Origin: Octopus vulgaris | Lineage: Eukaryota | Direction of reading: 5' to 3' | Assembly (NCBI GenBank): GCA_951406725.2 | Contig: OX597814.1 | Location: 68,696,001-68,760,000, forward strand | Length of the DNA stretch: 64,000 bases | In this document: piece by piece, positions 5,482 through 51,876 of the stretch | Position numbering within the stretch: the first letter of the stretch is position 1 | How the letters are laid out: every line of letters begins with the position of its first letter | Position numbers and translations under genes: made by a program | The notes under the pieces: model-generated | The model's input: the letters and a program-made list of their open reading frames with translations, nothing else | Databases searched by the model: none | What the model was told of the DNA's origin: nothing

Positions 5482-5530
5482 AATAAATATAAGAGAGTGG
5501 TCACTATATTGATCACTCTCTTATATTTAT

Positions 5531-5531
<1 letters not shown>
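5482..5531. repeat. Hairpin with 18-bp perfect stem plus wobble extension
   Basis: AATAAATATAAGAGAGTG-GTCACTATATTGAT-CACTCTCTTATATTTATT. Confidence 0.85.
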
Positions 5532-5579
<48 letters not shown>

Positions 5580-5589
5580 CATACATACA

Positions 5590-5660
<71 letters not shown>

Positions 5661-5663
<3 letters not shown>

Positions 5664-8600
5664 AATCAAGGAACGGCCATAATAGGCCATTCACCCACTA
5701 GAAATAACAGCCAAAGCTTCAACCGCAAAATAACATTAATTCCGCAAACCAGGAGAAAATTAAAAAAAACATTTACCCTGTAATTTCTTATACGATGCAC
5801 CGTTTCATCTATTGTTTAATGGTAAACTAACCTGATTAAATTAAATCAAGCCAATCTTCCATAGGCCCTTAGATTCGTCAGTAAGAAATAGCCAGATCGG
5901 AACAGATATTTTCACGAGGCACTTCTGTCCCTGCCTCGGCAATATCTGACCTAAAATTTTCAAATCATCGCACTCGCGCCAAATTTATCGGCAGCAAATA
6001 AATATAAGCCGCCGATTCCATTACGGAATTAACCAGAAAATTCATAATTAATCAATATAGGGTGGCAAAAAATTTTGTAGAATTTTTTTGCCACCAGCGG
6101 CCTAGTGGGAAAAAATTAAATAGTCATAGACCATTTATAAGTTCAACATCACAATCAAGGAACGGCCATAATAGGCCATTCACCCACTAGAAATAACAGC
6201 CAAAGCTTCAACCGCAAAATAACATTAATTCCGCAAACCAGGAGAAAATTAAAAAAACATTTACCCTGTAATTTCTTATACGATGCACCGTTTCATCTAT
6301 TGTTTAATGGTAAACTAACCTGATTAAATTAAATCAAGCCAATCTTCCATAGGCCCTTAGATTCGTCAGTAAGAAATAGCCAGATCGGAACAGATATTTT
6401 CACGAGGCACTTCTGTCCCTGCCTCGGCAATATCTGACCTAAACTTTTCAAATCATCGCACTCGCGCCAAATTTATCGGCAGCAAATAAATATAAGCCGC
6501 CGATTCCATTACGGAATTAACCAGAAAATTCATAATTAATCAATATAGGGTGGCAAAAAATTTTGTAGAATTTTTTTGCCACCAGCGGCCTAGTGGGAAA
6601 AAATTAAATAGTCATAGACCATTTATAAGTTCAACATCACAATCAAGGAACGGCCATAATAGGCCATTCACCCACTAGAAATAACAGCCAAAGCTTCAAC
6701 CGCAAAATAACATTAATTCCGCAAACCAGGAGAAAATTAAAAAAACATTTACCCTGTAATTTCTTATACGATGCACCGTTTCATCTATTGTTTAATGGTA
6801 AACTAACCTGATTAAATTAAATCAAGCCAATCTTCCATAGGCCCTTAGATTCGTCAGTAAGAAATAGCCAGATCGGAACAGATATTTTCACGAGGCACTT
6901 CTGTCCCTGCCTCGGCAATATCTGACCTAAAATTTTCAAATCATCGCACTCGCGCCAAATTTATCGGCAGCAAATAAATATAAGCCGCCGATTCCATTAC
7001 GGAATTAACCAGAAAATTCATAATTAATCAATATAGGGTGGCAAAAAATTTTGTAGAATTTTTTTGCCACCAGCGGCCTAGTGGGAAAAAATTAAATAGT
7101 CATAGACCATTTATAAGTTCAACATCACAATCAAGGAACGGCCATAATAGGCCATTCACCCACTAGAAATAACAGCCAAAGCTTCAACCGCAAAATAACA
7201 TTAATTCCGCAAACCAGGAGAAAATTAAAAAAACATTTACCCTGTAATTTCTTATACGATGCACCGTTTCATCTATTGTTTAATGGTAAACTAACCTGAT
7301 TAAATTAAATCAAGCCAATCTTCCATAGGCCCTTAGATTCGTCAGTAAGAAATAGCCAGATCGGAACAGATATTTTCACGAGGCACTTCTGTCCCTGCCT
7401 CGGCAATATCTGACCTAAAATTTTCAAATCATCGCACTCGCGCCAAATTTATCGGCAGCAAATAAATATAAGCCGCCGATTCCATTACGGAATTAACCAG
7501 AAAATTCATAATTAATCAATATAGGGTGGCAAAAAATTTTGTAGAATTTTTTTGCCACCAGCGGCCTAGTGGGAAAAAATTAAATAGTCATAGACCATTT
7601 ATAAGTTCAACATCACAATCAAGGAACGGCCATAATAGGCCATTCACCCACTAGAAATAACAGCCAAAGCTTCAACCGCAAAATAACATTAATTCCGCAA
7701 ACCAGGAGAAAATTAAAAAAACATTTACCCTGTAATTTCTTATACGATGCACCGTTTCATCTATTGTTTAATGGTAAACTAACCTGATTAAATTAAATCA
7801 AGCCAATCTTCCATAGGCCCTTAGATTCGTCAGTAAGAAATAGCCAGATCGGAACAGATATTTTCACGAGGCACTTCTGTCCCTGCCTCGGCAATATCTG
7901 ACCTAAACTTTTCAAATCATCGCACTCGCGCCAAATTTATCGGCAGCAAATAAATATAAGCCGCCGATTCCATTACGGAATTAACCAGAAAATTCATAAT
8001 TAATCAATATAGGGTGGCAAAAAATTTTGTAGAATTTTTTTGCCACCAGCGGCCTAGTGGGAAAAAATTAAATAGTCATAGACCATTTATAAGTTCAACA
8101 TCACAATCAAGGAACGGCCATAATAGGCCATTCACCCACTAGAAATAACAGCCAAAGCTTCAACCGCAAAATAACATTAATTCCGCAAACCAGGAGAAAA
8201 TTAAAAAAACATTTACCCTGTAATTTCTTATACGATGCACCGTTTCATCTATTGTTTAATGGTAAACTAACCTGATTAAATTAAATCAAGCCAATCTTCC
8301 ATAGGCCCTTAGATTCGTCAGTAAGAAATAGCCAGATCGGAACAGATATTTTCACGAGGCACTTCTGTCCCTGCCTCGGCAATATCTGACCTAAAATTTT
8401 CAAATCATCGCACTCGCGCCAAATTTATCGGCAGCAAATAAATATAAGCCGCCGATTCCATTACGGAATTAACCAGAAAATTCATAATTAATCAATATAG
8501 GGTGGCAAAAAATTTTGTAGAATTTTTTTGCCACCAGCGGCCTAGTGGGAAAAAATTAAATAGTCATAGACCATTTATAAGTTCAACATCACAATCAAGG

Positions 8601-9181
8601 AACGGCCATAATAGGCCATTCACCCACTAGAAATAACAGCCAAAGCTTCAACCGCAAAATAACATTAATTCCGCAAACCAGGAGAAAATTAAAAAAACAT
8701 TTACCCTGTAATTTCTTATACGATGCACCGTTTCATCTATTGTTTAATGGTAAACTAACCTGATTAAATTAAATCAAGCCAATCTTCCATAGGCCCTTAG
8801 ATTCGTCAGTAAGAAATAGCCAGATCGGAACAGATATTTTCACGAGGCACTTCTGTCCCTGCCTCGGCAATATCTGACCTAAAATTTTCAAATCATCGCA
8901 CTCGCGCCAAATTTATCGGCAGCAAATAAATATAAGCCGCCGATTCCATTACGGAATTAACCAGAAAATTCATAATTAATCAATATAGGGTGGCAAAAAA
9001 TTTTGTAGAATTTTTTTGCCACCAGCGGCCTAGTGGGAAAAAATTAAATAGTCATAGACCATTTATAAGTTCAACATCACAATCAAGGAACGGCCATAAT
9101 AGGCCATTCACCCACTAGAAATAACAGCCAAAGCTTCAACCGCAAAATAACATTAATTCCGCAAACCAGGAGAAAATTAAA
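5661..9181 (-). mobile_element. Tandem array of 7 full plus 1 partial 488-bp hammerhead-bearing units (retrozyme-like / PLE pLTR array)
   Basis: Unit starts (CACAATCAAGG) at 5661, 6150, 6638, 7126, 7614, 8102, 8590 and 9078. Units are nearly identical, non-coding and flanked by (TA)n on both sides. Each full unit has one complete hammerhead. Confidence 0.9.
5783..5889 (-). ncRNA. Type I hammerhead ribozyme (unit 1; identical copies at 6271-6377, 6759-6865, 7247-7353, 7735-7841, 8223-8329, 8711-8817)
   Basis: Minus RNA: stem I AUUUCUUA, core CUGACGA, stem II AUCUA...UAGAU with nested helices, GAAA, stem III ACGGUGCAUCGU, triplet GUA, stem I' UAAGAAAU. All conserved core nucleotides are present. 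Predicted cleavage is between 5791 and 5790. Confidence 0.9.
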
Positions 9182-9386
9182 ATATATATATATATATATA
9201 TTTCGTTTTGGGATTTGGTTTGCAAGATTCTTTATGTGAGTTCGCTTGTTGAAGCATATTCTGTTGTGTCTGGGGAGAGTCATTCTCTTTTAGTGCCTTA
9301 TAATTTAACACACTCACCGGTAAAATTTCCATTTATTTCTTTTTTTATTTTTCTAAAAATGTTCGTTACGTCTTGCAATCTTTTCA

Positions 9387-35890: not shown

Positions 35891-36987
35891 CTAGCATTAT
35901 GACTCGGTGTTGCCGGGTCATAGTGCTAGTGCATGTATACATGTGTATATATATGTGTACATATTACATGTACATCTATATATATACATCTACACATAAA
36001 ATACAAAATACAAAGTTATATATTGATATCGCTAGTGAATTTACTGCCTCTGGTTAGATACTTGATATCATTCATAGTCGCACCAAGACACTTTTCGATG
36101 GTGCTTTCCTCCAGGTGTTCAAATCTTTTTTTTTCTCTACATTGTATACTTTATAGACAATAGTCTTTTCTTTAATTTTATTTTTTATTTCGTTTGGTGG
36201 TGTTATCTTAGATTCACCGTCTTTGTCGGTGATCAATCCGAAATAGGTTTGTATTTCTTCCATTTTAATTTTAATGAGTTCGCGCCCGCCGACGGCTGCA
36301 GCGAAATTCATTTTGGGACTTTCATCTGTCGAAGACATTTAAACAAAAATGCTTCCGTATAAACGGTGAAAATATTGTCAACTTCTCCAAACAGACATTA
36401 CATACAGCCAAACTTCATATAGATACTTAATGCTAGCTAATTAGCAGATAATTTAATGTAAAAGCCGTGGTAAAGTGTATGTGCAAAGCTCCATCTGGAC
36501 TATTCCATTTCTGCACTTAAATTTTATTTTCTATTTATTCACATTCATGTGAAACCACTTATTCAAGTTCAAGTCATTGATGCAATTTTATACCAATTGC
36601 TATTTTTACTTTTAATTGTTATGTTACGATTTAATTATTATATTATACTTTAGTTTGATTTTAATTATTACTTACTACATATAATTCAATTGTTATTATT
36701 ACCTCTAATTTTTATTGTTAAAGTGAAAGTATCTGGCATAAAATAGAGAGATGTTTTTGTTTCATTTTTAACACGTAATACTGAAATAGTGCAGAAGATA
36801 TGATATTGCTATGGGCTCGCCCTAGTCAAGAAGTTGAACATTTTTGCCCATGAAACTACATGGACCCTAAGTAAGGCATGTGTAAAATTTGAATAAAATT
36901 GCTTGTGTAGTTCTCAAGTTTTAAGGTAACACATAGACAGACAGACAGACAGACAGGCAGACACACATTCTCAGTTTTATATATAGA
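35891..36987 (-). mobile_element. Non-autonomous Helitron
   Basis: Minus 5' end TCTATATATAAAA with (GTCT)n. 3' hairpin ATGACCCGG-CAACA-CCGAGTCAT followed by CTAG|T. Confidence 0.7.
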
Positions 36988-37100
36988 TATATAGATATAT
37001 GTATATATGCATACATGAACTATTGTACATGAACGGAGGATCAGTTTCAGTGAATGTCTGTCAAAAACCTGAAAGTCATGTGGAAGTTTTAAGGTAACAC

Positions 37101-37135
<35 letters not shown>

Positions 37136-37258
37136 CACATTCTCAGTTTTATATATAGATATATAGATATATGTATATATGCATACATGAACTATTGTAC
37201 ATGAACGGAGGATCAGTTTCAGTGAATGTCTGTCAAAAACCTGAAAGTCATGTGGAAG
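36916..37258 (+). repeat. Direct tandem duplication of about 170 bp
   Basis: Copies start at 36916 and 37084 and differ mainly in the (GACA)n tract. Confidence 0.9.
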
Positions 37259-50617: not shown

Positions 50618-51474
50618 AAATTTCTTTACCTACATCGTGTCATGTCTTCGTTATGAAATGCAAAGAAGAGTTCCAGGGGGGGGGAGTAATCAGGGATTTC
50701 TTCCGGTATAAGGGAGATAATCGCTTTATATTTTTTTCTTTTTTCAATGAGATGAGTTTCTCTGTATAAGAATGTTAGGATGGTTAAGTTTAGGCTTATA
50801 TTTTTCAATGAAGAATGTTTTCTTTTTTAATCTAATTTGTGTTGGTGTTCCAATAGCCCATTGATAGAATGGAAAGATTAAAAATTGTGGTTGTAGTTGC
50901 TTAGCGCATTTCTCAATATGCTCACTAAAGGGTATCCTTCTGTATTCTGGGAATGCAATCTGTTGTCGATGCAGTGTGCATCTGCATCTGAGTGATAATC
51001 CCGTGGACCCTACGTAGTTTTGGTGGCAGCCCGAGCATCTTATGACATAAATTATGTTTTCAGAAGCACAAGTAAAATTAGATTTGATTTTGAATTTTTG
51101 TCCCTCTTTGAAAAAGAAATTCTGATCCTTCTAGAAGGTTTGAGCATGTTGCGCAGTTTGGTCTACCACATGTTTTTAACTTTTGCATCCGTAATTTCAG
51201 AAAACAATTTTGCCTTTGTGAGAATCTTTTTTAGTGATTTAGGTTGTTTGTAGCTTTTAATGATTTTATGTATGTTTAGAATTTCCTTTAATTTAGGGTC
51301 CTTATGAAGTATTGGTAAATTCTGGGTGATGATGGTGAAGGCTCCTTTGCTCCTGGGTTTGTATGTGGATACGTAAGGCAGTATTTTCGGGGAAGGTGTG
51401 TTGTTGTGTTTAACTTTCCTCAAAGTTTCTATGTCGATTTCTGTTGCACGTCTGATCCCATCCTATATGAGTTG

Positions 51475-51602
51475 AACTGTTTTTGAGTTCTTGTAGCCTG
51501 AACTGTTTTTGAGTTCTTGTAGCCTAAACTTTTTGAGTTCTTGTAGCCTAAAATTTTGAGTTCTTGTAGCCTGAACTGTTTTTGAGTTCTTTTAGCCTAA
51601 AA
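51475..51602. repeat. Minisatellite of about 25 bp, five copies, inside the PLE ORF
   Basis: (GAACTG)TTTTTGAGTTCTTGTAGCCT repeats. Confidence 0.9.
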
Positions 51603-51876
51603 TTCCTGGTATTTTGTTCTGACACTATTGTGCATATCCTTCTTGCAAGGTTGAAAGGGATGTTTGTTTTAGTGTGTCTTGGGTGGCATGAATAAAAAAG
51701 TAGGTATTGTTTGGCGTCTGTGATTTTGTAAAATATGTCTGTTTCTATTCTTAGGTTAATTTTTTTATACAGTATATCTAAGAATGGAAGCTCCTTTTGA
51801 TTGTACTCCATTGTGAACTGTATATTTGGGCTGACGCTGTTCAATAGGTTTTTGAATTTTAGGAGTTTATCTGTGT

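Follow-up and report, generated by a model that had tools for sequence, protein, structure and literature searches.

The 64,000-nt stretch of Octopus vulgaris DNA analysed here (the window) carries, at positions 5659-9182, a tandem array with a period of 488 bp, in which 7.2 copies of a unit with a G+C content of 36.7% (179/488) are 99% alike; the full units differ at one site, and an additional A occurs in the partial unit at the start. We found no RT + GIY-YIG reading frame within the array and no reading frame of at least 150 aa, the length range covered by our search. Array ends abut (TA)n directly, and a target-site duplication, which exceeds 4 bp in animal non-LTR retrozymes where there is one, is unreadable inside (TA)n. 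Unit positions are numbered along the minus-strand RNA from the predicted cut of the ribozyme described below, such that position p corresponds to window coordinate 6279-p. The array and the first of its ribozyme motifs comprise the following features:

5522..5660, no strand: (TA)n/(TACA)n microsatellite, the target site, at the fixed RNA 3' end of the array (position 131).
5659..9182, minus strand: tandem array of 7.2 488-bp units, a single-armed insertion of the family.
9183..9200, no strand: (TA)n adjoining the truncated end of the array (RNA 5', unit position 25).
5783..5889, minus strand: type I hammerhead, the first of 7 copies, recurring every 488 bp up to 8711-8817.
5889-5882 with 5790-5783, minus strand: helix I, 8 bp.
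5881-5875, minus strand: core sequence CUGACGA.
5806-5803, minus strand: sequence GAAA.
5807..5874, minus strand: stem II, 68 nt, with a 5-bp base, an internal loop, the helix AUGG/CCAU and a 14-bp extension with five G-U pairs.
5792..5803, minus strand: stem III, self-complementary, a 4-bp hairpin in a single hammerhead and a 12-bp duplex in a double one.

The 7.2 units contain 7 hammerhead cores, and all elements of a hammerhead open at helix I, namely CUGANGA, GAAA, NUH and three helices, are present in the form of CUGACGA, GAAA and GUA. Following the hammerhead consensus, cleavage would presumably occur after GUA, between 5791 and 5790. Position N7 of the core is unconstrained, with C, A, G and U all occurring, and internal loops are predicted adjoining helices I and II. 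On the plus strand, no hammerhead core was found with either CUGANGA or CNGANGA as the pattern. An Rfam search over the 64 kb returned no hits at the gathering score and, at E up to 10, nine weak unrelated hits and no hammerhead, likely because of the 68-nt stem II; ribozymes with so long a stem II slip past Rfam.

Searching the 2.8-Gb genome (227 contigs), we obtained 1,152 candidates for the unit at first look, the best 40 of which had 97-100% identity over full units. A 19-nt core had 806 exact matches spread over many contigs (control 0), and looser core patterns had 1,764 (control 43), 2,821 (control 2) and 3,064 (control 2) matches. The genome holds about 3,000 copies of the hammerhead, which fall into five subfamilies that are 83-100% alike; relative to subfamily A, to which the window unit belongs, E stands at about 94%, B at 92%, and C and D at 83%. 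An initial guess that ACGAUGCAUCGU was the main variant was dropped, with 7 matches only. The cleavage triplet GUC is present in subfamily E, helix I of subfamily C differs in sequence on both of its sides while retaining its 8 bp, and a complete core with an 8-bp helix I occurs in all of the real dimers scored (8/8). Simple patterns for pol III A/B boxes gave no match, and T runs are present on the RNA strand. Assembled contigs of four public runs cover the unit, carrying no information on strand, ends or level. A sequence-word search for RNA datasets holding the unit listed none; among 23 runs merely guessed to be RNA, 14 hold 46-75% of its words.

Outside the hammerhead, the minus-strand RNA of the unit holds these features:

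5903..5948, minus strand: two-stem hairpin with a conserved outer stem, an inner stem broken in several subfamilies and a hypervariable loop.
5987..6016, minus strand: CGGC/GCCG hairpin, 9 bp, in which one G-U pair is A-U in C and D and one pair is A-C in B.
6016..6028, minus strand: UUCC/GGAA hairpin, nearly invariant and without covariation; in the window unit, a long-range helix competes with it.
6061..6095, minus strand: strong hairpin in the tail, one pair of which goes from G-C to G-U to A-U across subfamilies.
6044..6147, minus strand: tail, 104 nt, between the fixed insertion ends at unit positions 235 (6044) and 131 (6148).
6102..6190, minus strand: branched domain, outside the list of the original prediction, with the helix 6190-6183/6109-6102.

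The original prediction had described serial hairpins with strand-specific G-U pairs, and each of the helices that it listed was recovered. In the stem II extension, AUUGGCUUGAUU (5855-5844) and AAUCAGGUUAGU (5837-5826) pair at 12/12 positions on the minus RNA, with 4 G-U pairs, and at only 8/12 on the plus RNA; the extension lengthens to 14 bp with a pair probability of 0.99. The AUGG/CCAU helix lies at 5862-5859/5822-5819, the 5903-5948 helix is composed of an 8-bp and a 7-bp stem around a 4x2 internal loop (written as dashes in the prediction), CGGC..GCCG belongs to a 9-bp stem (6016-6008/5995-5987), TTCC/GGAA pairs at 6016-6019/6025-6028, and the hairpin at 6061-6095 is present. A long-range helix predicted for the window unit (6236-6224/6033-6021) is not maintained in B, C or D, where its pairing is disrupted, and the local UUCC/GGAA hairpin may therefore be the better model. 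In the branched domain, the helix 6190-6183/6109-6102 closes a GGCC hairpin (6181-6160) and a hairpin at 6137-6117, and the position-131 end falls in an unpaired part; neither site 131 nor site 235 has any pair above probability 0.5. The tail contains two hairpins, including the strongest one listed, as well as one side of the CUAGUGGG/CCCACUAG helix. Overall, the unit is predicted to adopt a branched fold with long unpaired stretches.

The span 5783-6105 folds better than its shuffled versions on both strands (z -5.78 on the minus and -4.56 on the plus strand; 0/100 shuffles as good), and so does the circular monomer, at -144.3 kcal/mol (z -5.41) on the minus and -107.6 kcal/mol (z -6.66) on the plus strand, again with 0/100 shuffles as good. 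As 15 ordinary 300-nt windows of the 64 kb spread from z +1.9 to z -4.1 (12 shuffles each), a z of -5 is not decisive by itself. The strand asymmetry that was proposed for the whole unit is base composition only: the minus strand has an advantage of 36.7 kcal/mol, compared to 36.1 +/- 5.2 in shuffles (z -0.11), and its fold contains fewer G-U pairs than those of shuffles (22 vs 29.6 +/- 4.1). Being no larger than in shuffles, this asymmetry was rejected as proof of RNA selection. Strand specificity does hold for stem II alone, with z -4.56 on the minus and -0.84 on the plus strand (asymmetry z -4.0, matched by 1/500 shuffles), but not for the rest of the unit; among 17 sliding 80-nt windows, the only two that are asymmetric both lie over stem II (z -3.0 and -3.4).

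That both strands fold equally well relative to shuffles outside stem II would be expected if only the hammerhead were selected, the other hairpins being incidental or a DNA-level property of self-complementary satellite DNA, and any excess of G-U pairs reflecting a G/U-rich strand. Comparison of the subfamilies makes this an improbable account. With helices defined on the window unit alone, the Watson-Crick pairs of this unit showed, across lineages, 16 G-U, 3 A-C, 13 mismatch and 4 compensatory states, mismatches thus making up 13/36 of the changed states. The preference of G-U over A-C (binomial p 0.004) has no counterpart at unpaired positions, where the same transition classes occur 13 versus 16 times (Fisher p 0.008), and 11/16 of the G-U states lie outside the ribozyme. 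Conversely, 10/13 of the G-U pairs of the window unit are Watson-Crick pairs in another lineage, among them 3 of the 4 stem II pairs to which the original prediction had pointed, and next to the stem II G-U pairs a neighbouring U-A turns into U-G.

Tested against permutation within stems, the observed substitutions kept pairing on the minus strand in 9/15 cases in B (P 0.02), 15/26 in C (P 0.0004; L206, L213 and L219 were left out of the subfamily C tables) and 12/20 in D (P 0.0006), compared to 7/15 (P 0.06), 13/26 (P 0.55) and 9/20 (P 1.0), respectively, on the plus strand. C and D are related, so that these substitution events are not all independent. In subfamily E, which was collected afterwards, the 10 changed pairs comprise 8 G-U, 0 A-C, 1 mismatch and 1 change from G-U to A-U. 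An alignment of 26 units, drawn from 148 monomers with one of two one-copy clusters left out, had 95.3% of its cells paired (99.1% in the stem II helix) and a covariation score of 0.099, versus 0.090 +/- 0.002 in shuffles (0/500). Because helix I is not aligned correctly by MAFFT in C and D, only 3 helix I pairs enter the covariation analysis, and helix I was instead read directly in the dimers. Pairs changed on both sides amounted to 4/108, a level reached by 131/500 shuffles. In line with selection on the hammerhead only, stems are not depleted of substitutions (50/248 vs 54/240 outside, p 0.58), and the inner stem of the 5903-5948 hairpin is poorly kept, being broken in B and carrying an A-C pair in C and D.

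Taken together, selection at the RNA level, as the original prediction had it, finds support for the minus-strand fold in the comparison of subfamilies and none in the energy asymmetry on which the claim was to rest. Judging from these alignments, selection likely acts on how the minus-strand RNA folds, since the element would spread as RNA. A different origin of the G-U pairs, through A-to-I RNA editing fixed by retrotransposition, was suggested by T>C changes of the plus strand (A>G in the RNA), which led the difference tables of the public contigs. Across 408 pieces from 91 loci, A>G does not exceed U>C, with 30 vs 45 distinct changes in total and 15 vs 31 among singletons, and C>U and A>G gave rise to G-U states equally often, rendering this origin highly improbable. 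What is new here is a comparative test, using five co-existing subfamilies, for a selected fold of the ribozyme strand that includes parts outside the ribozyme; published support, in those parts of the animal retrozyme papers that we draw on (PMC7229834; 10.64898/2026.07.22.740005), consists of energy predictions, and no covariation test of the fold is given there.

The original prediction also held that stem III is self-complementary and that adjacent units might fold as dimeric hammerheads. Stem III indeed self-pairs at 12/12 positions (5803-5792), two G-U pairs included, and so does each of the versions ACGGUGCAUCGU, ACGGUAUAUCGU, ACGGUAUACCGU, ACAAUGCAUUGU and ACAAUGCGUUGU; in one lineage, stem III is ACGGUACAUCGU, with a non-palindromic loop, 10/12 pairs and a dimer gain of 2.4 kcal/mol. 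In 7/8 real dimers (L227 and L276 having no scorable dimer), the double hammerhead lies 10-14.5 kcal/mol below two single ones, and in the window dimer it coincides with the free optimum, at -193.6 vs -180.1 kcal/mol. A central GC-to-AU change in stem III involves bases that are unpairable in the hairpin, and two transitions could yield it by chance. The single hammerhead lies 2.1 kcal/mol above the local optimum, and the lowest-energy fold of the circular monomer misfolds the ribozyme, with the active form 3.3 kcal/mol higher. With the single form this close in both contexts, the dimer is favoured, and its necessity is not implied.

Dimeric folding between adjacent units is thus supported in silico, and ribozymes of this type are known for it: in the portions of the sources used here, dimeric cleavage is described for axolotl retrozymes (PMC7229834) and for Penelope hammerheads (PMC6765202), and the hammerheads of newt and axolotl satellites and of Penelope elements likewise have a palindromic stem III loop and form double hammerheads of neighbouring units (PMC7229834; PMC6765202). 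Compared to these, stem III here has 4 bp, such that a single hammerhead is feasible too. For Xenopus retrozymes, 8/9 dimers remained uncleaved in vitro (10.64898/2026.07.22.740005). The core, helix I and the stem III palindrome have been kept through coordinated changes in five subfamilies, implying that cleavage seems to matter.

We conclude, with a probability of roughly 80%, that the repeat is a multicopy, non-coding animal non-LTR retrozyme whose minus-strand fold is likely selected. The class, which is characterized by the lack of an LTR, a primer-binding site and a polypurine tract, its predicted self-paired fold and its dimeric hammerheads are already known from the available text of PMC7229834 and 10.64898/2026.07.22.740005. 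Shared with it are tandem non-coding units with one type I hammerhead each, a G+C content under 50%, thousands of copies, a predicted self-paired fold, dimer-capable hammerheads and Penelope-like elements alongside. The 488-nt unit is longer than the 150-450 bp stated in the part of PMC7229834 considered and falls within the 51-972 bp of 10.64898/2026.07.22.740005, and the octopus ribozyme differs from those of described animal retrozymes in its 68-nt stem II, which Rfam models miss. Back-to-back arms with two fixed (TA)n ends, presented below, are not described in the sections of these two papers that we cite. Our literature search, with the supplements (PMC7229834, bioRxiv) and PMC5785218 outside its scope, listed no publication that deals with retrozymes of cephalopods, with the present family, or with retrozyme arrays having two fixed ends.

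The geometry of insertion was determined at 89 loci (47 picked by similarity and 42 taken in order of position). Most of them (62/89) are back-to-back pairs of arms whose outer ends are RNA 3' ends, the remaining 27/89 being single arms, among them the window array with its end at 131. In 55/62 inverted loci, one end lies at 125-146 and the other at 228-242 (modes 131 and 235); the other 7/62 have at least one odd end, and the same site was used twice in 0/62. Subfamilies B and E have identical end sites, and 139/151 RNA 3' ends abut TA repeats. The two arms of one locus agree at 704/713 lineage-marker sites (58 loci; 0.66 with shuffled pairing, maximum 0.77), and 86/147 arms are longer than one unit, reaching up to 14 near-identical units. 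The 5' ends of arms pile up neither at the cleavage site (4/147 vs 3.0 expected) nor at the start sites (9 and 10 of 147 vs 7.5 and 7.5), and this even spread, with no excess at the cut, points to a circle or an uncut multimer as the template. Dispersed arrays with fixed RNA-sense ends are not made by unequal crossing-over, which further argues against satellite DNA in which only the hammerhead is selected.

As far as can be read from the genomic copies, two fixed ends, one per arm, in (TA)n are the footprint of Penelope-type copying. Penelope elements are characterized by inverted truncated copies, a one-sided tail of 30-40 bp and (TA)n targets (10.1101/2021.04.23.441226, as far as consulted), and a Penelope protein in purified form cleaves both strands and extends them, with synthesis starting at two internal sites on either side of the tail (PMC11167929). 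By analogy with PMC11167929, the tail at 6044-6147 would lie between two reverse-transcription start sites. The family shares with endonuclease-bearing Penelope-like elements an inverted 5'-truncated copy, a tail at one end and a (TA)n target (10.1101/2021.04.23.441226), as well as a type I hammerhead with a palindromic stem III and two internal start sites (PMC11167929; 10.1101/2021.04.23.441226), all according to those portions of the papers that we use; it differs in having no coding sequence, a structured tail of 104 nt rather than 30-40 bp, and arms that are often multimers. A strict rule of one site per arm is not stated in the same portions of these two papers. The insertion geometry found here (two fixed starts, one per arm, in multimeric arms of a single lineage) constitutes a clear-cut signature, at the genomic level, of Penelope-type copying.

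This footprint also bears on the term viroid-like in the original prediction, which suits a small, self-paired, hammerhead-bearing RNA but not a repeat that resides in chromosomes, bears the footprint of retrotransposition, has a branched fold and carries no ribozyme core on the plus strand. Hammerhead viroids (Avsunviroidae) are small, self-paired, hammerhead-bearing RNAs with ribozymes in both polarities, whereas the element described here is chromosomally encoded, has the core on one strand and displays no sign of infectivity or of RNA-to-RNA replication. With a plus strand devoid of a ribozyme core, its sequence indicates that it is not a viroid. An RNA that replicates from RNA to RNA and was integrated secondarily would share its size, self-pairing and hammerhead, and for mussel retrozymes, replication through RNA has been mentioned as a possibility (PMC7229834, in the part considered). 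We consider such an origin very unlikely, given that the plus strand has neither the CUGANGA core nor a pairing conservation of its own and that thousands of chromosomal copies carry a target-primed footprint.

Under the retrozyme reading, we propose the following cycle. The array would be transcribed into a multimer, in which neighbouring hammerheads would pair through the palindromic stem III into a double hammerhead and cut after GUA. The resulting 488-nt monomer may be ligated into a circle by a host RtcB-type ligase, by analogy with what the relevant part of PMC7229834 describes. A Penelope-like RT/GIY-YIG protein would then cut a (TA)n tract on both strands and prime reverse transcription on each, using a single RNA as the template but two start sites, 235 for one DNA strand and 131 for the other. 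Each copy would proceed around the template to a random stopping point, and the two would be joined, giving rise to back-to-back arrays or, as in the window, to a single array. Only RNAs that keep the ribozyme stems and the start-site hairpins would complete the cycle, and G-U pairs would consequently be tolerated while A-C pairs would not.

The same element might be copied by the same Penelope-type process from an uncut linear multimer, the hammerhead being slow or protein-dependent and circles a by-product, a variant that we hold to be possible though doubtful. Since arms cross the cleavage site freely, an uncut multimer explains them as well as a circle does, and variants at period 2-3 in some arrays (those of the window, L261 and L048) are what a multimeric template would give; moreover, the Penelope protein of Anolis mainly used uncut RNA, and hammerhead mutants still inserted (PMC11167929). 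Nonetheless, the core, helix I and palindrome are those maintained by coordinated changes in five subfamilies, related animal retrozymes accumulate as circles (PMC7229834, in the text drawn on), and arms of up to 14 near-identical units are most simply made on a circle.

Returning to a circular template, a tentative proposal, which we advance with less than even confidence, is that the hairpin domain at 6044-6190 acts as a docking site that places a dimer of the Penelope protein on one RNA circle, its subunits starting at 131 and 235, each on one strand of the cut (TA)n. Such a site, if true, would explain why the rule of one site per arm is never broken, and would supply a minimal co-varying substrate for the formation of Penelope tails and inversions and for determining which enzyme moves animal retrozymes. 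More generally, the insertion geometry brings two questions within reach of in vitro tests on a 488-nt RNA, namely by what means animal retrozymes are mobilized and how the tails and inversions of Penelope elements arise.

A GIY-YIG search of the genome for a potential partner gave 148 matches among 150 scored of 6,136 candidates. Against the repeats of 50 Penelope-like loci, a small and biased sample of the 6,136, the unit showed no similarity except for one nearby inserted retrozyme fragment. Descent from a Penelope terminal repeat is the origin proposed for animal non-LTR retrozymes; of the Xenopus families, 24/57 matched known elements. Apparent links between the unit and Penelope at L114 and L275 were dismissed as separate insertions in neighbouring TA tracts. 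Two Penelope-like families stand out, both young, (TA)n-flanked and with two 3' ends: the first has intact 781-aa RT + GIY-YIG frames, TA-flanked ends and a ~30-nt tail, and the second has identical terminal repeats in 40/40 scored cases and likewise a ~30-nt tail. Neither resembles the unit, and the partner is therefore proposed as a candidate class rather than an identified element. In the second family, a small hammerhead-like motif, read by eye, lies ~140 nt before the first end.

Among the full units of the 488-bp hammerhead repeat in the window, only one site varies (positions 5956, 6444, 6932, 7420, 7908, 8396 and 8884). Taken in that order, its states are A, C, A, A, C, A and A, a period of three. 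Periodic variants were also found in three further loci from the same genome (L261, L048 and L033). Such periodicity could stem from copying of a multimeric template, from duplication within the array or from the assembly. At another locus (L059:2156-3319), a single arm changes its lineage markers mid-array, at unit positions 249, 390, 410 and 411, which suggests a template switch between two RNAs. At a few loci, including the right end of L061, the terminus falls within the hammerhead and adjoins another repeat, and L101 contains two separate insertions 500 bp apart. The window also carries an unrelated 172-bp tandem repeat at 36916-37258 (two copies, 97% matches).

Across public sequencing runs X1-X20, 46-98% of the sampled words of the 488-bp unit were present; these runs bear four organism labels, implying that close relatives of the unit occur beyond the label of the source genome.

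Two Penelope-like families are also present in the genome.

L142:2245-4587 (L142 on the plus strand) and L143-L157: first family, very young
L158:4796-4850 (L158 on the plus strand) and L307-L331: second family

The first family has an intact 781-aa RT/GIY-YIG frame, with a coding-like stretch upstream of the frame and TGACGTC/CCAAT-rich repeats downstream of it, as well as two 3' ends ~30 nt apart, and targets (TA)n. A scan of this family detected no canonical hammerhead. Two old fragments related to its coding region (70-73% identity) lie at window positions 51026-51826.

The second family, with 939 candidates in the genome and identical sequence among the copies scored, carries a hammerhead-like motif in which CCGAAGA replaces CUGANGA and the stem III palindrome is a minimal GUAC, together with an AC-rich tail of ~30 nt.
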